In this document: positions 32,179 to 60,884 of the stretch, one piece after another
Position numbering within the stretch: position 1 is the first letter of the stretch
Layout: every line of letters begins with the position of its first letter
Assembly (NCBI GenBank): GCA_020619395.1
Contig: GCA_020619395.1_4860.1
Length of the DNA stretch: 64,000 bases
From: a phage
Strand: one strand, 5' to 3'
The notes under the pieces: model-generated
Seen by the model: the letters and a program-made list of their open reading frames with translations, nothing else
Database searches by the model: none
Told to the model about the DNA's origin: nothing
Translations under genes and position numbers: made by a program

Positions 32179-33438
32179 TTACTTAGACTTTTCATACGCA
32201 CCGATACCGGCGCTGATGTAGCCGTTAACGCCGGCGATCAGGTTTTTCTGGCCGGTTGCAACGCAACGTTCGGTCCAGGAGATGTACTGGTTCGCAACGG
32301 TGATTGCACGACGTGCAACACGGACGTTGGAAGTCAGTTCAGCGTTGTCGTCGATCTTCACGCCGTCGATACGTTTCAGCAGCGCCTCAATAGCCCGCTC
32401 GTACGATTCTTGAGCCTGGTTATTTTTGTGGTACGCTTTCACGTTCTCTTCGACTGCTTTACCCAGCTGGTTGAAGAACGCAACCAGAGAAGACAGCGTC
32501 TGAGCAGACGGAGTAGAAACAGATTTTTCTACGCTGCCTTCAGCATCGATAACGGTGAAGGAAGCTTCCAGGTCATCCCCGTTCACTTTCACGTCAGCTT
32601 TACCGATCTGGTTACCCAGCAGTTGAACTTCGCCCGCTTTGCCTGCAGTGGCTTTGTTAACCGCTGCTGCGAAGCCGCTGTTCAGTTTGCCGCCTTCAAC
32701 TGAGCTGACCATGCGGGTTGCATCTTTGACCACTGCTTCCTGCTCGCCGTAGATGCTGCCGATAGTAGACAGAACACCTTTCAGTGCATTGATGTCGTCA
32801 CCAACAAACTTACCACCGGTGGTCAGGTTCTTAATGAACCCACCGCTAATGGTGTCTTTCTTCTGCTTGCCCAGGCCACGCAGAGCCGCGTCATATTTCT
32901 TAGCGCGTGCCTGAATGGATTTACCCTGGTTGCTGAACTTGAGCCAGCGATCTTTGATTTTACGGCCTTGTTCTTTCAGCCAGTCGAAGATACGCTGCAG
33001 GAACGCTTTGATGTCGTCCCACAGTGATTCGCGAGCAACCTGACGGCGTTTACGTGCGCCGTAAGATTCCTGCGCAACGCTTACGCGGTGATCGAATGCC
33101 CAACGCTTACGGATAGATTCCTGCGCAACGTCCAGCTGCTCAGCAGCTTCGTCAGGCATATCTTCTTCCACTTCCATTGGCTCTTCGCCATCTTCGCCTT
33201 CGCCGTCAGCGGCGGCTTCAGCAGCATCAACTGCATCCAGCTGTGCATCAGTTTCGTCACCGTCTTCTGCCAGCACGTCTGCTTCTGCGTCCAGCTGGTC
33301 GATCGGTTTGGTGTCATGCTCGATGTCAGCCAGAGTACCTTCCACGGACTCAGCCGGCAGCTCGATGCCATCTGGAACGACAGTGCCTGCGCCTTCGACA
33401 GATTCACGAGCGAGTTTACTTTTTACAAAGTTAGCCAT
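32179..33438 (-). CDS. acidic paralog A (419 aa), possible virion/internal head protein
   Basis: Shares N-terminus MANFVKSKLARESVE, internal VAQESIRKRWA and C-terminus GAGIGAYEKSK with the adjacent gene; highly acidic N-terminal third; biased codon usage. Confidence 0.6.
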   Translation of the reverse strand: MANFVKSKLARESVEGAGTVVPDGIELPAESVEGTLADIEHDTKPIDQLDAEADVLAEDGDETDAQLDAVDAAEAAADGEGEDGEEPMEVEEDMPDEAAEQLDVAQESIRKRWAFDHRVSVAQESYGARKRRQVARESLWDDIKAFLQRIFDWLKEQGRKIKDRWLKFSNQGKSIQARAKKYDAALRGLGKQKKDTISGGFIKNLTTGGKFVGDDINALKGVLSTIGSIYGEQEAVVKDATRMVSSVEGGKLNSGFAAAVNKATAGKAGEVQLLGNQIGKADVKVNGDDLEASFTVIDAEGSVEKSVSTPSAQTLSSLVAFFNQLGKAVEENVKAYHKNNQAQESYERAIEALLKRIDGVKIDDNAELTSNVRVARRAITVANQYISWTERCVATGQKNLIAGVNGYISAGIGAYEKSK

Positions 33439-53479: not shown

Positions 53480-53863
53480 TTAACTTGCATCGTGTGGAAC
53501 AGTCACCCAATCGTGCCATTTTTCAGAGTAAAGACGATAAGCCATCTTTGGATTCTGATCGACGCTGCCGGCCGGGTTCTCATTCCACAACACGTACGTA
53601 TATAACTCGTACGACGAAGTGTTACGGATACTTGACGTGCGGGTGACGTAGTACGTCAACCCGCGTTGGTTAAGGAACAGGCCGCTGTAATGTTCAGTGA
53701 CCATGTAGTAGTGAAACGCCTGGTTGATAGTGGCGTCGGTGCAGAGTTTCTTAGCGACGTCTTCTACGCCGGGATACGCCTTTAGAATGTTTTCGAGAAA
53801 ACTTGCTAAAGTCATTCCGATGTAGGGTGGCAGCGGCTCTGCTGGACGCGGCGGAGTGAGCAT
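53480..53863 (-). CDS. hypothetical protein (possibly spurious or shorter)
   Basis: Track ORF overlaps the 3' end of the helicase gene by 113 nt; true extent uncertain. Confidence 0.3.
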   Translation of the reverse strand: MLTPPRPAEPLPPYIGMTLASFLENILKAYPGVEDVAKKLCTDATINQAFHYYMVTEHYSGLFLNQRGLTYYVTRTSSIRNTSSYELYTYVLWNENPAGSVDQNPKMAYRLYSEKWHDWVTVPHDAS

Positions 53864-56495
53864 GTGATTTCCTTACAACGTAGGGGGATGTCGCGATACG
53901 GAACGACAATACGACATCCTTGAGTGATTTCTGGCGGGCATTCAGGTAATTGCAATGCTTCGGTACGTTATACGCATGGAATAACCACACCGTTGGGTCT
54001 ATTTCACCCCACTCGTTGTGGAGAATCTTACGTGGACGACCGGCCATCTGTTCGTTCAGTTGCTGGTCTTCTACCGGGGTTGAGATGTACATGTGCACCA
54101 ACCCAGGTTTATCGACCGCAGTCCCCGCTTTCCCCGGTGTGGAGATAGAGAAGTCTGCTTGGATAAAGTCGTCATACGAATCGCCTGCATTATATTTCGC
54201 CACCATGAGTGGATGGAATACAGGGTCACGCGATAACTTATCTTTCACATACTCGGTAAAGAACTCACACATTGCAACCGTAGCAAATAGCAGCAAACAC
54301 TTCTGGCCGGGTTGATACCGTTTAAGGAACGATTTCTCAACCACATCCCAGATCATGTTCGCGTATTCTAAATGCAAGTTCTCTTTAATCAGCTTCCCTT
54401 CGAAGAGTTTGTGGTTATACGGCGTCATCTTCGACGCCCACCACGCGAACTTCTTATCATCCAGTCGATAGTACAACGCTTTCACGTCAACCACCGGAAT
54501 GATTGGAATACTGATTCGGTACTCCATTGGGAAGCGTTCTAAATACCGCTCCGCGATAAAGGCTTTACTGCTACCCGGTTTAAGAGTTGCAGACATCTCT
54601 ATCGATGCCGGCGGGTTCAACATTATACCAGCCATGTAAACGAGGTGAAAATGCTCGTGCACCTCATCCATCGCCACCAGACCCACACCCAGAACATCAT
54701 AAAACGTATCCAGGTCCACAGGGTTAGTCGCAGCAGTGTTAATGTACTCCTTCAGGAAACGCTGTAGAGAGACCGTGGGGAGGATTATTACCTTAATACC
54801 GCGTCTATCTAGCTCTCCCGACTTACCCATCTCCAGCGCGTCGTAAATCGCCTGTACGCCTGTACAAACTAACACCTCGTCACGAAGTATACGAAGTCCT
54901 GTTTCATCATCACAGACGTCAAACAGCCATTTGGGAACGTATGACGGACGGTGAATCAATGCGGTACGGGTTCCCCGTTTAACCATCGACTTCATACAGG
55001 TCTTGGTGTTGTGCGTAACGATCCACTTGTCCACCACAAACAACGCATCGTCGTTCTCGACACGAATACACGTGGCAAGATCACGACCAATGGGTTCGAT
55101 AGACTTAACACGGAGTTTCAGTATATCGGTGTATTGTCCGTTATCACGACACAGTTCTTTCTTCCTTGGAAGATGGAACAGTTTCGATGGTGTTTTGTGG
55201 CGGATGGAGACGTTATAAGCCAAACGACCTTCACGACGTTCGCCGTTGTGTGTGAAGAACGGACGTTTCTCGCGTAGTGTTGCAATCCCTCCTAAAGACC
55301 GCACAAGTTCCTGAACACCTAAAGCCAATTCTTTACTGGTGGAACAGAAAGAAGGCGTACCACCATCCTTATCCACAGTACCGTCAGTATCCATCAAGCC
55401 ACGCAACAACTCCCACCGTTGTTCGATGGACGTTTCGAAGTAATCTCCAGGTATGAACTTTTCCCAAGACCTGCAGCCAATTAACCCTAACCGCTCAAGC
55501 TCTCTGCGGACAAGGTTAACACCGCCGGGACAAGAGATGCACTTCGTTATCCCATCGCTGTACGATGAATCATGGATTGCATGTCCAGCGGGCATGACCT
55601 CAGCAACACGGTCACGAATCTCCACATCGCCTTTGGTGTATAAAACACCAGGCATCGATAGGGAGCCATCACCCAAGAGGATACCGAGTAAATACGGATG
55701 AATGACAAAATCCTTAGCTGGCTTTTCCTCTGGTTCTGGTAATGGGATGTATACCCGTGGATTAGGCATCGAAATTAAACGTTTCATCTCTAGGGTATCA
55801 CGTACACCCCAGCGACGATTCTCGGTGGTATTAACGTAGTAGCTTTGCCACAAGTGCTCGCCACATACGTCAACACTCCTACCATCCCAAAACGTCACCT
55901 GATACAGGTCAACCACACCCTGTGGGAACACTCCAGAGACCATTGCTGGTTTTCCGTCACGCCCCGTAACGTAATCACCTAGCTGTATATCCTCAATGTT
56001 CTTCCAACCACCCGGTACACGCACACGCGTACCATGCGCGAGAGCTTTTCCTCTTCCTGTTTGTATCGCGAAAACCGTTTGTGAGCGCGATGGATCTGTT
56101 GCGGCGGCTACGACTTCATTCTGATAATAGAAACGCGACTCTGGGTCTGTCTCTTCCATCTTGAATCCGTAATTATCAAACGTGCACTTATAAGGTGTTC
56201 CTCGTACAGGACGGTGCTCTGTTAGCTTGTACTGAAAAGCGTATTCAATTGCTGCTCGTTGGAGGATATGTTTAATCTTCTCAGCGAACACTTTATGGAA
56301 AATGAACGTCCTTAAAGACGGAATGTGGGCGTAGTACGCGTCACCGCGTTCCGTGGTTATTCGTCCATGTTGCTTGCCCATCTTTGGGGCGTGCATATTC
56401 TCTTCGGCCCACGCGAGTATGGCCCTTTCAGCCTGGCGGATAGGGACTTCAACCCGTACCCCCATACTCGTGTAAGTCATTTGAATTTCTACCAT
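53751..56495 (-). CDS. SF2 DExH-box helicase interrupted by an intein
   Basis: Extein motifs: Walker A AIQTGRGK|T (split by the intein), Walker B LVAMDEVHE, motif III SAT, motif VI QMAGRPRK; basic RRRRRR C-terminus. Start set at ATG 56495 because the longer track ORF runs through terminator 56520-56538. Confidence 0.8.
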   Translation of the reverse strand: MVEIQMTYTSMGVRVEVPIRQAERAILAWAEENMHAPKMGKQHGRITTERGDAYYAHIPSLRTFIFHKVFAEKIKHILQRAAIEYAFQYKLTEHRPVRGTPYKCTFDNYGFKMEETDPESRFYYQNEVVAAATDPSRSQTVFAIQTGRGKALAHGTRVRVPGGWKNIEDIQLGDYVTGRDGKPAMVSGVFPQGVVDLYQVTFWDGRSVDVCGEHLWQSYYVNTTENRRWGVRDTLEMKRLISMPNPRVYIPLPEPEEKPAKDFVIHPYLLGILLGDGSLSMPGVLYTKGDVEIRDRVAEVMPAGHAIHDSSYSDGITKCISCPGGVNLVRRELERLGLIGCRSWEKFIPGDYFETSIEQRWELLRGLMDTDGTVDKDGGTPSFCSTSKELALGVQELVRSLGGIATLREKRPFFTHNGERREGRLAYNVSIRHKTPSKLFHLPRKKELCRDNGQYTDILKLRVKSIEPIGRDLATCIRVENDDALFVVDKWIVTHNTKTCMKSMVKRGTRTALIHRPSYVPKWLFDVCDDETGLRILRDEVLVCTGVQAIYDALEMGKSGELDRRGIKVIILPTVSLQRFLKEYINTAATNPVDLDTFYDVLGVGLVAMDEVHEHFHLVYMAGIMLNPPASIEMSATLKPGSSKAFIAERYLERFPMEYRISIPIIPVVDVKALYYRLDDKKFAWWASKMTPYNHKLFEGKLIKENLHLEYANMIWDVVEKSFLKRYQPGQKCLLLFATVAMCEFFTEYVKDKLSRDPVFHPLMVAKYNAGDSYDDFIQADFSISTPGKAGTAVDKPGLVHMYISTPVEDQQLNEQMAGRPRKILHNEWGEIDPTVWLFHAYNVPKHCNYLNARQKSLKDVVLSFRIATSPYVVRKSHAHSAASSRAAATLHRNDFSKFSRKHSKGVSRRRRRR
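55008..56045 (-). mobile_element. class-3 (WCT-type) intein with LAGLIDADG homing-endonuclease domain, 346 aa
   Basis: Block A ALAHGTRVRV...QLGDYV (Ala at position 1); block B GEHLW; LAGLIDADG motifs LLGILLGDGS and LLRGLMDTDGTVD; block F ATCIRVENDD; block G WIVTHN followed by +1 Thr. Confidence 0.8.
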
Positions 56496-56519
56496 GCTGC
56501 CCCTCTTCGCACAAAAAAA

Positions 56520-56538
56520 GAGGGGCGCAAGGCCCCTC
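56520..56538 (-). terminator. rho-independent terminator / attenuator between beta-prime fragment and helicase
   Basis: gaggggc-gcaag-gcccctc hairpin preceded by an A-run (T-run on minus strand) just after the stop of 56542..58647. Confidence 0.55.
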
Positions 56539-56541
56539 GGT

Positions 56542-58647
56542 TTACAACTCAATTACCACAGCGGCTCCTAGGTCATCGTACAACGATGCCGGGATTTTGT
56601 ACTCGGTATAAAAACCAACGCGATCGATATTCCCCTGCTGTCCTTCAAACAACAACATCGGAATTGCCGAGCGCAAACTAATGAGCGTGTTGTGATCGAC
56701 AAACCGTTTCCCGGTGGCATTAGTAGAATCCTCACTGTCAAATCCTACTGCCGGGAACGGATTGGTTGGTGACTCTACACGAGATATCGCCAACATAATC
56801 GCAATGTGCGTCATCGGTATACCGCTCAGCTTACGCTGGATGTACTTAAACGTATCCATCAACGCATAAGTACACTGTTTCTCTGTAGCACCACCCATTT
56901 CAACCAACGTTACCGGTTTCACACGACCTTGTTTCTTGTTCAACTTCACAGTCGAGGCTGTGTTGATGATTTCCACAATGTCTTCGTTCTTATCGGCTGC
57001 GATTGAACGTAGCTTGGTTTCTAACCCTGCCACGAATTCTGCCATCGATTCAGAACGGTTGGTGTAGACCAGTACCGGGTGTTTCGGGTTCCATCCTTTC
57101 AAAGGAATCTGAACCGTCTTCTTCTCGATACGAATGTTCGCACGTTGTTTCAAGAAGTAATGCAAGAACGGTTTAGAGAAGTTCCCACAAACACCCATTC
57201 GCACATCGATAGAATCTGCAGCGATGATTTGCCCATCTTCTAAACGACGCTGGAATGTCAAGTCGGTGATTTCCGGCAATGCTGTTTCATCGATTGCATC
57301 GAGATCTTCATGATACGCAATCTGGCTCAGCTCCGAATAAACTTTGTCGGTAACGACCAACTCGTATTCTGACCAATTACCACGCTGTGGTTTTGGTAGC
57401 AAGCACAACCCTTTCAGAGAGTTATGTTTGTATTCGGTCATGTACTCACGCATTCTCGGCGTGAGTACCAGGTTGAGCAGATAACGCAAGAAGTCAAGGT
57501 GCTTGGTAGAGAGAATTCCCTGTGTACCCTTTTCCGAGATGGACGTGGACGCCAGGTGACCTGGTGACGTACCTTCAGAGAGGTTATAAATCAAATCCCC
57601 CATACAGGTCGCACAGATGGACTGATTCGCCATCTCTTTACAGGTCATGGCACTACGGAAGACCAGCGGTTTGCCAACCAGGTCTGCGTATCCGCCTTTC
57701 TCAAATCTCAACCACGGACCATTATCACCTTCTAAACGATAACGCATCCCCACCATCGCTTTATAGGCACGCTCATCCAGCTGCGTATCCTTAAACGTGT
57801 AGCGGTGTGCGTGAGTTGTACCGCAGTCGTCGTACGTGAAATACATCAGTACGTTTGCTGCCAACTGCAGTTTACGTGAGGCGTATTCTGCTTCGGCAAT
57901 CTTGTCAGTGTTGTACAAGTGGGAACGTGAAGTTGCACCGGATTCTTTCAAACGCGAAATAACCGAGTGCATTCCGGTAAAGAAGCCTTCCCACACCTGA
58001 TTGGTGTATACACGTGAGTCAATTTCTGACGTTTTACCACGCACGAAGGCTTGCAGTACCTGGTTCATCTTCACAGTACCGTCCAGTACCGACATCACGA
58101 CCGGGTTATACCGTAGCGCAGGGTCTTTGAAGATTTTCTCGATAAGCTTGTACGCTTCTTCAACCATATCCCGACCATCTTCATCGTAGCCAGTAGGATA
58201 TTGCACTTCCCACTGACGGATGAGTTCGAAGTTCGGATGGTCGTAGATCTCCATCATCGTATCAAAGTCGATTGTCGTACAATAGGACAGCAAGTTCTTC
58301 ACTGTCATGTTGAACGCATCGGCGTAGACATGTTGACTCAGGATATAACGCGTTTCAGCAAGGTCGACGCCTGCTTTACGGGCCAGTACCGCTGCTTCCG
58401 ACATAAAGTCCAGATGCAGGTCATCTGTTGCTACCTGACCTGGACGATACGCCATGGTCGATGGAGTGGGCACCTGCGGATACAGACGCGACACACCCCA
58501 ATACGGCCAGCTGAGTTTGATGTGGCGACTAGACATTTCCAACGACTTACCATCGTCGAATGTCACGTAATAACGCCCGCGTAGTTTCCACACCTGATCA
58601 GAGTTAAGCATACGCAAATCACGTACGTGTACAGAACGACCCGCCAT
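56542..58647 (-). CDS. multisubunit RNA polymerase beta-prime homolog, C-terminal part
   Basis: LMYFTYDDCGTTHA parallels E. coli RpoC LVVTEDDCGTHEG; FRSAMTCKEMANQSICATCMG...ASTSISEKGTQ parallels VRSVVSCDTDFGVCAHCYG...AAQSIGEPGTQ (trigger-loop region). Confidence 0.7.
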   Translation of the reverse strand: MAGRSVHVRDLRMLNSDQVWKLRGRYYVTFDDGKSLEMSSRHIKLSWPYWGVSRLYPQVPTPSTMAYRPGQVATDDLHLDFMSEAAVLARKAGVDLAETRYILSQHVYADAFNMTVKNLLSYCTTIDFDTMMEIYDHPNFELIRQWEVQYPTGYDEDGRDMVEEAYKLIEKIFKDPALRYNPVVMSVLDGTVKMNQVLQAFVRGKTSEIDSRVYTNQVWEGFFTGMHSVISRLKESGATSRSHLYNTDKIAEAEYASRKLQLAANVLMYFTYDDCGTTHAHRYTFKDTQLDERAYKAMVGMRYRLEGDNGPWLRFEKGGYADLVGKPLVFRSAMTCKEMANQSICATCMGDLIYNLSEGTSPGHLASTSISEKGTQGILSTKHLDFLRYLLNLVLTPRMREYMTEYKHNSLKGLCLLPKPQRGNWSEYELVVTDKVYSELSQIAYHEDLDAIDETALPEITDLTFQRRLEDGQIIAADSIDVRMGVCGNFSKPFLHYFLKQRANIRIEKKTVQIPLKGWNPKHPVLVYTNRSESMAEFVAGLETKLRSIAADKNEDIVEIINTASTVKLNKKQGRVKPVTLVEMGGATEKQCTYALMDTFKYIQRKLSGIPMTHIAIMLAISRVESPTNPFPAVGFDSEDSTNATGKRFVDHNTLISLRSAIPMLLFEGQQGNIDRVGFYTEYKIPASLYDDLGAAVVIEL

Positions 58648-60884
58648 TATTTATCCTCCCGAATTGGACGCACTAATTCAAAACCTTCACAGCGATGGAT
58701 GTTACGTATCATCCTGTCAATCTGCGAATCTCCCATTGGCAGTTTCTTACGATCGACCAGCACCCCCGGATTGGTTGGTGTTGGCGAGTTATACAGCCCC
58801 GTTACGATCGCACGGTGTACCGCAGGGTTATTAGCGCGGTCATGAGTTTCGGGGAAGTTGCCCGGACCAAAGCCGTCGGTAAGACGCTGCTCGGAAGGAC
58901 CACCCCACTTCAACCCTTTCAGGTTAATCGGATATGAACCACGTCCTTGGTTGGATGCATCAATACAACCCAAATAGTTCGTGTACATCGACGAGATACT
59001 GGAGAACTCACGACCGGTTTTATCCAGGCGCAGAGTCTCTACCATGCCGACGTAGAACTGGTTCTTCGTCCACTCTTTCTCACCCTGATAGTTAGTAATC
59101 AGTAGCTTAGACTTGCGTGGTGCATACTCGCCTAGAGCACGGCAGATTTCTACCTGGGTGGCATTCAATTCGTGGGGAAGCCAGATACGAATCGTGAAGT
59201 CGTAAATCTCTTTAAAGAGTTCCAGACGTGACTCAGTATCTGGGTGACTGGCATTGAGATAGAATGTCCAGCGTGGGTTATAGCGATCGATATAGTCCAT
59301 CAGGATTTCCCAGGCTTCATCAACCTGGTTGGCAGCAAGTAATGGTTTCAACCGCATCTTCAACTGCTCGGATGCAGCAGACCAATACATGTGGAACAGC
59401 GCAGCATAAGTCGAACGACGAATTACGGCGTTCATGGAACGAATGACATGCACACGTTCTCCGAACTCGTTAATCGGCATTTCTTCATCAGGCCGCACTG
59501 CACCCACGATACCTTTTGTACCTGAACGGTCGGTGATTTTCGATGAGACGGTAACTGGGATTGGATAACGTACCACGATGCGTATCGTGTAACTACCAAT
59601 TGGGTCCCAGAGACCACGCTGAACCGGCTGCGCCAGTTTGTTTAACACGTTCTTATCAGCAGAACGGTTATACTCGCCTTTGCGCATGGCTTCATCGTAT
59701 TCACGACCAATCTCTTCACGGAAGTCGTTATAGACTTCATACGTCTCAGAACAGAACGCCTTGTCAAGAATCTCAAACGCTTTCGGTGACCAGACAATAT
59801 TCTTGTCCTTGGACATCGCAAAATAGAACCGCACGATATCATTGTAAAAACGTTTCAAAGCGTTCGCGTAGTGATCTAACTCGCGTTTGTTCTCTTCGGT
59901 ACATGCGATATTGTTAACACCACGATCGCATTTGGTTTCGTCCCGCCATACCTGAATATCAACGACACGAGAACCAGTACGTTCCATCTTTTCAAAGTCG
60001 CCAGCCTGACGCGCTTTGTAATGCTCAGGGTCAGCATCAACATACTCACAACGGTCGAAGTGCGGAGAGATATGTTGTGTTTCACCTACGTGCGAGTCAA
60101 TGGCTGCCCATAGCTTATCGAAACGGCGCGCGGCAATAACCAACCCATCATCACGAATTGCCTGTCCTTTATTGGGCAGGTACTGTGGTCGACGAACGCC
60201 ATCAATACCCGTTGTCCCATACGTATCAAGCAGGTACTCGTCGTCGCGCAAGGTAAAGTCGATTGCACGCAAACCATAAGCGTGCATCGCTTTCGCTGCA
60301 GTTTCGGAGATGGTGTACGAGTCCTCGATAATGTCCGGGTGCGACATTGTCACAGTGTGCAGGTTGACCCCATCGACAAACTCACCGTCTTTCTGTGCCG
60401 GCAGTACGGTAAGCATTTCATCTTTTTCCAGGTGCTGCGTCTGCCCGCGCAGCAACGCCTGAAGTTTCCCAGTAGCCTCTTTCTTAGACGAGAAAATGTT
60501 ATCGTGGTTGGTGTAATACTTAATATCGATTACATCAATCATCACTTTGCGCTGGTTGGTTAAATCTGCGCGCGTGAAGAAGATAACATGCTGGAGCGGT
60601 TCGTGATCCCCTTCACGACCATAGCGTGCAAAAACAGCTGCACGAGTAACACCTTCTTTGGTTGTGTAACTGCACACGGTACCACTGTCTTCCACGATAT
60701 CGTTAAAACAATAATCGTGGTAGTTCACATCAGCGCCGGTAAAATGGATAGTCGGATCTGGATTGTCCAGTGGTACCGCCGACTTCATATGTCCACCCAC
60801 CATTGAGGCACGTGCCCCAGATACGCCAGTGATATTCACCTCACGGTCAGCAACGCTTGACATGAGTTCGACTGGTGTTTTCAT
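58647..60884 (-). CDS. multisubunit RNA polymerase beta homolog, C-terminal half
   Basis: DIIEDSYTISE parallels YNFEDSILVSE; SRVVDIQVWRDE parallels GTVIDVQVFTRD; ITDRSGTKGIVGAVRPDEEMP parallels [26 protein letters not shown] parallels VPSRMN. Confidence 0.8.
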   Translation of the reverse strand: MKTPVELMSSVADREVNITGVSGARASMVGGHMKSAVPLDNPDPTIHFTGADVNYHDYCFNDIVEDSGTVCSYTTKEGVTRAAVFARYGREGDHEPLQHVIFFTRADLTNQRKVMIDVIDIKYYTNHDNIFSSKKEATGKLQALLRGQTQHLEKDEMLTVLPAQKDGEFVDGVNLHTVTMSHPDIIEDSYTISETAAKAMHAYGLRAIDFTLRDDEYLLDTYGTTGIDGVRRPQYLPNKGQAIRDDGLVIAARRFDKLWAAIDSHVGETQHISPHFDRCEYVDADPEHYKARQAGDFEKMERTGSRVVDIQVWRDETKCDRGVNNIACTEENKRELDHYANALKRFYNDIVRFYFAMSKDKNIVWSPKAFEILDKAFCSETYEVYNDFREEIGREYDEAMRKGEYNRSADKNVLNKLAQPVQRGLWDPIGSYTIRIVVRYPIPVTVSSKITDRSGTKGIVGAVRPDEEMPINEFGERVHVIRSMNAVIRRSTYAALFHMYWSAASEQLKMRLKPLLAANQVDEAWEILMDYIDRYNPRWTFYLNASHPDTESRLELFKEIYDFTIRIWLPHELNATQVEICRALGEYAPRKSKLLITNYQGEKEWTKNQFYVGMVETLRLDKTGREFSSISSMYTNYLGCIDASNQGRGSYPINLKGLKWGGPSEQRLTDGFGPGNFPETHDRANNPAVHRAIVTGLYNSPTPTNPGVLVDRKKLPMGDSQIDRMIRNIHRCEGFELVRPIREDK

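Follow-up and report, generated by a model that had tools for sequence, protein, structure and literature searches.

A probable class 3 intein with a LAGLIDADG endonuclease domain in the Walker A motif of a phage helicase

The mechanism of class 3 inteins, their preference for P-loop insertion sites and their association with phages were described between 2010 and 2016. These inteins have been proposed to form a monophyletic group that arose in phages (PMC3196547; PMC4031507), and in them a cysteine at position 4 of block F (F:4) forms a class-specific branched intermediate (PMC2807308; PMC3196547; PMC5222942). Class 3 members lack Cys, Ser or Thr at residue 1, have Trp at B:12, Cys at F:4 and Thr at G:5 (the Trp-Cys-Thr, or WCT, triad), and are followed by Ser or Thr at the +1 position. 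Insertion between the invariant Lys and Thr of the P-loop is known as the 'classic' P-loop insertion (Kelley et al. 2016, PMC5050341; also PMC2807308); inteins at this Lys-Thr/Ser point, many of them class 3, include TerL1-a of mycobacteriophages (PMC5050341), those of PhoH and DnaB, and Dra Snf2 (cited in PMC3196547). Here we analyse a 64,000-nucleotide stretch of phage DNA (contig GCA_020619395.1_4860.1, referred to as the window), in which the Walker A motif of an XPB-like superfamily 2 (SF2) helicase with a DEVH motif is interrupted by a 346-residue segment that is very probably (we put it at about 0.88) a class 3 intein with a LAGLIDADG endonuclease. It differs from the classic P-loop inteins in its host, a helicase whose gene adjoins those of a multisubunit RNA polymerase.

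The class 3 prototype, MP-Be (Tori et al. 2010, PMC2807308), is like the window intein in its Hint/two-motif LAGLIDADG/Hint layout (341 versus 346 amino acids), in having a phage NTPase as host, and in lacking a nucleophile at residue 1. It is a distant relative, however, and differs in starting with Pro1, in its ...SQDQ/P junction (a slash marks an insertion point throughout) as opposed to GxGK/A, and in its terminase-like host, encoded upstream of a portal gene. We located this intein, named for DnaB, at residues 141–481 of Bethlehem gp11, where the flanks VSQDQ/P...THN/TKNTF and the numbering His65, Trp67, Lys319-Cys320-Ile321, Thr339 and Asn341 agree with PMC2807308; Bethlehem gp62, which is annotated as DnaB-like, was rejected as its location, being too short, and a tblastn search over 25–52 kb was empty. 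The Mycobacterium smegmatis DnaBi1 (Msm DnaBi1) and M. chimaera DnaB-1 (Mch DnaB-1) inteins (6BS8, 6RIX/6RIY; PMC6195587, PMC7664689) are the best solved-structure matches for the window splicing domain, and share with it a helicase P-loop, an Ala-Leu-Ala start, a Thr-His-Asn end and the WCT triad, but they are mini-inteins with no endonuclease, reside in a bacterial superfamily 4 (SF4) DnaB host, and have Ser at +1. Redox regulation via Cys48-Cys118 belongs to these DnaB mini-inteins and has no demonstrated counterpart in the window intein. PI-SceI (yeast VMA1), TliVMA and PI-PfuI also combine Hint and LAGLIDADG domains and are the best whole-molecule structural matches, although all three belong to class 1 (Cys1, Asp-type F:4) and are about 16% identical to it, and in PI-SceI a further DNA-recognition region is present. 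Inteins at the same QTGRGK/T point of the same gene, with the same layout, are found in Erwinia phage Kwan (gp48), Xanthomonas phage RTH11, and phages Lh1B, EC001, SPLA3, SPLA5c and JN03; their identity to the window intein ranges from 50–57% (RTH11, Kwan) up to 99–100%, they differ at residue 1 (Val in Kwan, Cys-Cys in Lh1B and EC001), and none is annotated as an intein.

We found no description of the window intein in the literature on SPN3US, Seoulvirus, EC001, Lh1B, SPLA3, JN03 and phiEL. What is new is only this particular, undescribed and unannotated intein; because the K/T P-loop site is classic and phage helicases and terminases often harbour class 3 inteins, it is an ordinary example, a typical member of its class in the most typical location, and it leaves the open questions of the field unchanged while adding enterobacterial jumbo phages to the probable class 3 hosts. 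The original prediction of this intein, made from sequence alone, called the class rare, which is not the case among phages: 287 of 784 actinobacteriophage inteins belong to it (bioRxiv 10.1101/2025.01.02.630785), and 581 phage records contain relatives of the window intein, some of them in other P-loop proteins, as in PhiPA3 and phiEL. There are four tblastn matches to the window intein in phiEL; the copy in ORF039, labelled RNA polymerase beta subunit in RefSeq, follows NAAGK, and its exteins align poorly with the window helicase.

Insertion point and host helicase

On nucleotide identity the window is from a Seoulvirus (SPN3US-like) jumbo phage, like SPLA3, Lh1B, EC001 and JN03; Salmonella phage SPLA3 matches the region at 99.3% identity, and Escherichia phages Lh1B and EC001 along with Salmonella phage JN03 do so at 97–98%. 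The interrupted gene is organised as follows.

53751..56495, minus strand: helicase precursor gene, ATG start, stop codon included; 914 amino acids, 104 kDa
56046..56495, minus strand: N-extein (amino acids 1–150), ending in the Walker A sequence ...QTGRGK
55008..56045, minus strand: intein, 346 amino acids (1038 nucleotides), precursor amino acids 151–496, from Ala1 to Thr-His-Asn346; absent from intein-free alleles, and supported by AlphaFold2, Foldseek and BLASTP
55731..56045, minus strand: Hint N-lobe, intein residues about 1–105 (limit approximate), with block A ALAHGTRVRV and block B CGEHLW
55146..55730, minus strand: LAGLIDADG endonuclease domain, intein residues about 106–300 (limits approximate)
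55008..55145, minus strand: Hint C-lobe, intein residues 301–346, with block F LATCIRVENDDALF and block G WIVTHN
53751..55007, minus strand: C-extein (amino acids 497–914), whose +1 Thr (55005–55007) completes Walker A

The precursor reads ...QTGRGK/ALAHGTRVRV...CGEHLWQS...LLGILLGDG...LLRGLMDTDG...LATCIRVENDDALFVVDKWIVTHN/TKTCMK.... The originally predicted coordinates, 53751–56495, are correct and correspond to the ATG start, which is preceded by a Shine-Dalgarno-like AGAGGGG, and both gene ends are annotated alike in the GenBank genomes of Lh1B, SPLA3, JN03, SPLA5c and EC001. The 933 amino acids given with them belong instead to a mechanically listed open reading frame (ORF; 53751..56552, minus strand) with an upstream TTG start. 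Similarly, the insert length of 346 residues stands, and its placement at residues 170–515 follows the 933-residue numbering and becomes 151–496 in the real precursor. The predicted masses of about 65 and 39 kDa agree with the computed values of 65.4 kDa for the spliced helicase (568 amino acids) and 39.0 kDa for the intein.

Intein-free alleles define the insertion point and bear out the proposal that Walker A is split exactly between GRGK and T. Alignment with phage SPFM19 contains one gap, of exactly 1038 nucleotides, with the junction QTGRGKT; the SPFM19 product is 568 amino acids long, reads QTGRGKTKSCMK, and is identical at 555 of 569 positions to the window protein spliced in silico. 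The whole query is present in five of 40 related phage records, and about 30 records (95–99% identity) give a two-piece match spanning 1764 nucleotides, which is 2802 minus 1038. Among 120 orthologue clusters, 90 are about 565 amino acids long and have no insert (82 of these read GRGKT), while 30 are about 910 amino acids long with an insert at the same QTGRGK/.../TK point. Because the insert is missing from most orthologues, it is not a conserved non-intein domain of these helicases, a possibility that the prediction had itself raised. We note also that because the intein sits in Walker A between Lys150 and the Thr, the precursor is unable to assemble a normal ATP site. In the records of SPFM5, 6, 7, 8, 9, 10, 12, 14, 15 and 20 (LR535903–LR535917) the helicase region is in 26–27 short pieces and the helicase is split into several 'hypothetical proteins', which looks like the product of indel-rich assemblies and not like biology.

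The identification of the host as a DExH-type SF2 helicase is confirmed. A search with the spliced sequence gives PHROG_16 'DNA helicase' (E=4e-58), and in spliced numbering that sequence contains motif I (GRGKT147), motif II (DEVH264), motif III (SAT289) and motif VI (QMAGRPR470); the last three, together with a disordered Arg-rich tail, lie in the C-extein, and 22 orthologues show no variation in the extein helicase motifs. The AlphaFold2 model of an intein-free orthologue, with a predicted local distance difference test score (pLDDT) of 85, agrees with the two RecA-like domains of SF2 helicases, and Foldseek matches it to XPB/Ssl2 (TFIIH), archaeal XPB, HsdR, Rad54, RecQ/WRN and DEAD-box proteins, with E values down to 1.7e-12. 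A search of the spliced helicase against PDB sequences gave no match even at E=10, and the Pfam models ResIII and DEAD match it only below their cutoffs. The tail, comprising the C-terminal 36 or so residues (53751–53860; ...FSRKHSKGVSRRRRRR), is basic, has a pLDDT below 50, is conserved (Kwan and the orthologue consensus both have it), and might serve in targeting or nucleic-acid binding.

The gene is labelled 'terminase large subunit' in the GenBank records of SPLA3 and SPLA5c, and helicase or hypothetical protein elsewhere. The terminase label is wrong, and is likely to have arisen because the intein matches the intein-containing PHROG terminase families phrog_19299, 36964 and 15; the gene should be annotated as an intein-containing helicase, and neither as a helicase of 914 amino acids nor as a terminase large subunit.

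Splicing and endonuclease domains and the class 3 signature

Every motif originally quoted for blocks A, B, F and G and for the two LAGLIDADG motifs is present in the sequence, and the proposed combination of Hint and LAGLIDADG domains is supported by the predicted fold, which goes against the refuting outcome named with the prediction, a lack of Hint fold or homology in the insert. The AlphaFold2 model of the intein, built with 46 homologues, has a pLDDT of 94 and a predicted template modelling (TM) score of 0.92, and its Foldseek matches are PI-SceI (E=6e-17, TM 0.73), TliVMA and PI-PfuI (TM 0.6–0.73 across these three), I-DmoI, the class 3 mini-inteins MchDnaB-1 and MsmDnaBi1 (target-normalised TM 0.77–0.78), and Prp8, RecA and DnaB inteins. 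Among PDB sequences, phmmer likewise picks up Msm DnaBi1 (6BS8) and Mch DnaB-1 (6RIX, 6RIY), both of class 3, as well as gp41-1 and PI-SceI. Pfam LAGLIDADG_3 matches at E=1.3e-10 (41.9 bits against a cutoff of 22.5) and Hom_end at E=1.4e-4, and NCBIfam models of intein-containing DnaB and RecA give partial or below-cutoff matches. The first LAGLIDADG motif, LLGILLGDG, starts at intein residue 119 and includes Asp126 (55668–55670), and the second, LLRGLMDTDG, starts at residue 213 and includes Asp221 (55383–55385); the corresponding helices in the model span residues 117–126 and 207–221. In the alignment of the 46 homologues Asp126 and Asp219 are invariant and Asp221 is present in at least 90%.

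All of the positions that define class 3 have the expected residues. The intein begins with Ala1 (GCT, 56043–56045), has His64-Leu-Trp66 in block B (His64, B:10, 55854–55856; Trp66, B:12, 55848–55850), Cys326 at F:4 (55068–55070), and Thr344 at G:5 followed by His345 and Asn346, and is followed by a +1 Thr; His64, Trp66, Cys326, Thr344, His345 and Asn346 are invariant in the 46 homologues. BLASTP aligns residues 2–346 with the MP-Be prototype (28% identity, E=4e-28) and brings every signature position into register, His64 and Trp66 corresponding to His65 and Trp67 of both MP-Be and Msm DnaBi1, and Cys326 (in LATCIRV) to Cys320 (in KCI) of MP-Be. The WCT identity put forward originally is thus upheld, and of the computational checks suggested with it, the alignment to class 3 inteins came out in its favour, in the MP-Be alignment and the matches to 6BS8, 6RIX and 6RIY, while the profile search gave LAGLIDADG_3 above its cutoff and the Hint models below theirs.

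A wider comparison shows which of these positions are fixed and which vary. A set of 95 database homologues, nearly all of them located right behind a P-loop GxGK (in PhoH, DnaB, terminase or helicase proteins), has Ala at residue 1 in 54 cases, the Trp in 72 of 76, the F:4 Cys in 80 of 85, the G:5 Thr in 78 of 82, and Thr or Ser at +1 in 74. At the orthologous helicase site, residue 1 of 30 inteins is Ala in nine, Cys in seven, Val in six, Ser in six, and Met and Gly in one each; in the 28 that can be delimited, His-Leu-Trp and the +1 Thr are invariant, the block F Cys is present in each, and the G:5 Thr is present in 27. Residue 1 thus drifts beside a fixed WCT triad, which provides indirect, comparative support for the F:4 Cys as the initiating nucleophile. 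Ser1 or Cys1 had been noted in 3 of 37 WCT inteins as early as 2010 (PMC2807308). The nearest solved or characterised splicing domains are those of class 3 (6BS8, 6RIX, MP-Be) and of gp41-1, a class 1 intein with Thr at G:5. Engineering has so far not achieved a change of class, as gp41-1 fitted with the WCT triad did not splice productively (PMC7664689).

The variation at residue 1 extends to alleles that are otherwise almost identical. The Lh1B and EC001 inteins match the window intein at 343 of 346 residues and start with Cys-Cys (TGCTGT), in contrast to the Ala-Leu (GCTCTC) that is common to the window, SPLA3, SPLA5c and JN03. If the Cys1 forms are class 1 and the Ala1 forms class 3, these alleles would be a natural pair for studying mechanism switching, and such a pair could be handy for work on intein mechanism and for protein-engineering tools.

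Intein residue 61 (55863–55865), at block B position 7, is also a cysteine, the second conserved one close to the active site, and the homologue consensus here is C-C-G-E-H-L-W. By analogy with the Cys48-Cys118 pair of Msm DnaBi1, one may speculate, and no more than that, about a redox switch formed by Cys61 and Cys326.

Flanking tracts and co-circulating inteins

Two tracts of altered sequence lie at the edges of the insertion.

56037..56190, minus strand: divergent tract, about 145 nucleotides of N-extein running into intein codons 1–3 (gene nucleotides about 306–459)
54999..55007, minus strand: 3' flank change in all intein-bearing alleles, ACCAAGACC versus intein-free ACGAAATCG (Thr-Lys-Thr versus Thr-Lys-Ser)

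The upstream tract is 26–31% different from both the intein-free SPFM19 and the intein-bearing Lh1B, and is identical in SPLA3; it is common to the window, SPLA3, SPLA5c and JN03, and the sequence outside it differs by 0–5%. We read it as a donor-derived co-conversion or recombination tract. All six bases of intein codons 1 and 2 differ between the window and Lh1B or EC001, and a recombination breakpoint therefore lies within the first few intein codons. Kwan was considered as the type of the donor and rejected, since it is even more different in this tract (55–58 mismatches in 150). Immediately upstream of the intein the window has GGA AGA GGA AAA (GGG AGA GGA AAA in Lh1B) versus GGT CGT GGG AAG in intein-free alleles, and immediately downstream intein-bearing alleles have ACC AAG ACC versus ACG AAA TCG; the predicted SPFM19-type target is ATTCAGACAGGTCGTGGGAAG/ACGAAATCGTGTATGAAG and the recoded site GGAAGAGGAAAA/ACCAAGACC. 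Every intein-bearing allele differs from the intein-free ones at both edges of the insertion site, the donor-type flanking tracts come in two lengths, and at all depths of the helicase tree the intein comes and goes sporadically (30 of the 120 orthologue clusters have it). Homing with co-conversion of donor flanks would leave such a pattern, with which general recombination is also compatible; as read from the alignments it points to probable recent homing. With presence/absence alleles and co-conversion tracts side by side, the locus offers a clean population-level view of what appears to be an intein still moving.

A variant 81% identical to the window intein is present in contig AAPGIT010000170.1 of a Salmonella Derby assembly, a phage sequence in a bacterial assembly. 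Compared with it, the ratio of nonsynonymous to synonymous change (dN/dS) of the Hint lobes is 0.04–0.05; comparisons with Kwan and RTH11, and that of the endonuclease domain with its Derby counterpart, are saturated at synonymous sites and give no informative dN/dS. The Hint lobes of the Derby variant are nearly identical to those of the window, its LAGLIDADG domain (gene nucleotides 725–1265) is strongly diverged, and its C-extein has a divergent patch at nucleotides 1505–1620; the Derby intein suggests mosaicism at the level of domains.

Phage-lineage groups with exteins that are 98–100% identical carry inteins at this same site that are only 56–73% identical to one another and have Ala, Cys or Val at residue 1 (proteins P0154/P0156, P0188/P0189, P0192/P0193, P0175/P0176/P0177 and P0132/P0136). 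Several diverged intein lineages thus seem to co-circulate, recombine and replace one another at one site. A more general picture, of the helicase K/T site of SPN3US-like and related jumbo phages as a natural arena of repeated intein replacement in which the residue 1 nucleophile is gained and lost on a fixed WCT scaffold, is offered tentatively, as possible rather than probable.

Proposed mechanism, alternatives and neighbouring genes

The most likely course of events, as predicted from the sequence, is that the intein excises itself by the class 3 route after translation. Cys326, positioned by His64 (B:10), Trp66 (B:12) and Thr344 (G:5), would attack the Lys150-Ala151 peptide bond to form the thioester branched intermediate; the N-extein would then move onto the side chain of the +1 Thr, cyclisation of Asn346 would free the intein, and an O-to-N shift would yield an intact 65-kDa helicase with GRGKT together with the free 39-kDa intein. 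In a mixed infection the two-motif endonuclease of the free intein presumably cuts intein-free helicase alleles at GRGK/T, and repair would copy the intein and some donor flank into the recipient allele.

Several points weigh against a class 3 homing intein. Splicing, the branched intermediate and DNA cleavage are all predicted. The Pfam Hom_end_hint model scores 29.3 bits, under its cutoff of 32.1, and all of the Hint models are below their gathering cutoffs, so that the Hint assignment rests on the fold and on the PDB and prototype matches. In the Cys1 sister alleles of Lh1B and EC001 the class 1 route is chemically possible, and class 3 splicing may not be obligatory throughout the family. 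The mosaic flanks could reflect ordinary homologous recombination between co-infecting phages. Finally, the five intein-bearing phages in GenBank were all isolated as viable phages, and this is indirect evidence for splicing whose weight hangs on whether the helicase is essential.

Three other explanations were considered. One accepts a genuine intein and supposes that its splicing follows a class 1-like or class 2-like route and does not go through the block F Cys. The same intein has Cys1-Cys2 in Lh1B and EC001, and with 13 of the 30 orthologous-site inteins starting with Cys or Ser a nucleophile at position 1 is frequent in the lineage; the window's own Ala1, however, cannot form a class 1 thioester, the KlbA type of class 2 needs Cys at +1, Asp at F:4 and Ser at G:6 (PMC4031507) where this intein has Thr, Cys and His, and it is residue 1 that drifts, the WCT triad being all but invariant. 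We therefore regard this explanation as very improbable. The least probable of the three is that the insert is a decayed, non-splicing remnant, leaving the precursor unspliced and the helicase inactive or dispensable. It has a precedent in the Arthrobacter Arth_1007 intein pseudogene (PMC3196547), and the helicase may not be essential, but all catalytic positions are intact here, including the F:4 Cys that is the residue missing in Arth_1007. Moreover, the low dN/dS of the Hint lobes, an open frame kept in six genomes, and an extein that is full length, with no stub and with motifs invariant in the 22 orthologues, all argue against decay.

The remaining explanation concerns mobility, and holds that the intein is splicing-competent with a dead endonuclease, its distribution and flanks being the result of general recombination with occasional precise loss. 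The mosaics do reach beyond any plausible nuclease site, as in the breakpoint within codons 1–3, the exchanged endonuclease domain of the Derby variant, and the patch at nucleotides 1505–1620. Against this, both catalytic Asp residues and the motifs around them are conserved in the 46 homologues, the endonuclease domain is modelled with high confidence, presence of the intein is sporadic at every level of divergence, and changes abut the site on both sides in every intein-bearing allele. We consider a dead endonuclease unlikely, and favour a class 3 intein whose LAGLIDADG domain is probably functional.

Two adjoining genes lie 5' of the helicase gene on the same minus strand (56542–58647 and 58647–60884) and encode pieces of a multisubunit RNA polymerase, namely split beta-type subunits (phrog_3015, E=1e-240; Pfam RNA_pol_Rpb2_6); the adjacency of helicase and RNA polymerase genes is kept in Kwan and in Seoulvirus relatives. 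We also looked in the window for a second intein or a free-standing LAGLIDADG gene, and the sole weak tblastn match (32476–32838, E=0.1) was rejected as chance, as it lies elsewhere in the window inside the gene for a phiKZ-type internal head protein. At the other end of the helicase gene, a 127-amino-acid ORF (53480–53863, minus strand) overlaps the helicase 3' end by 113 nucleotides in another frame; it is listed as a hypothetical protein in the Lh1B, JN03 and EC001 records, is unannotated in SPLA3 and SPFM19, and may be spurious.

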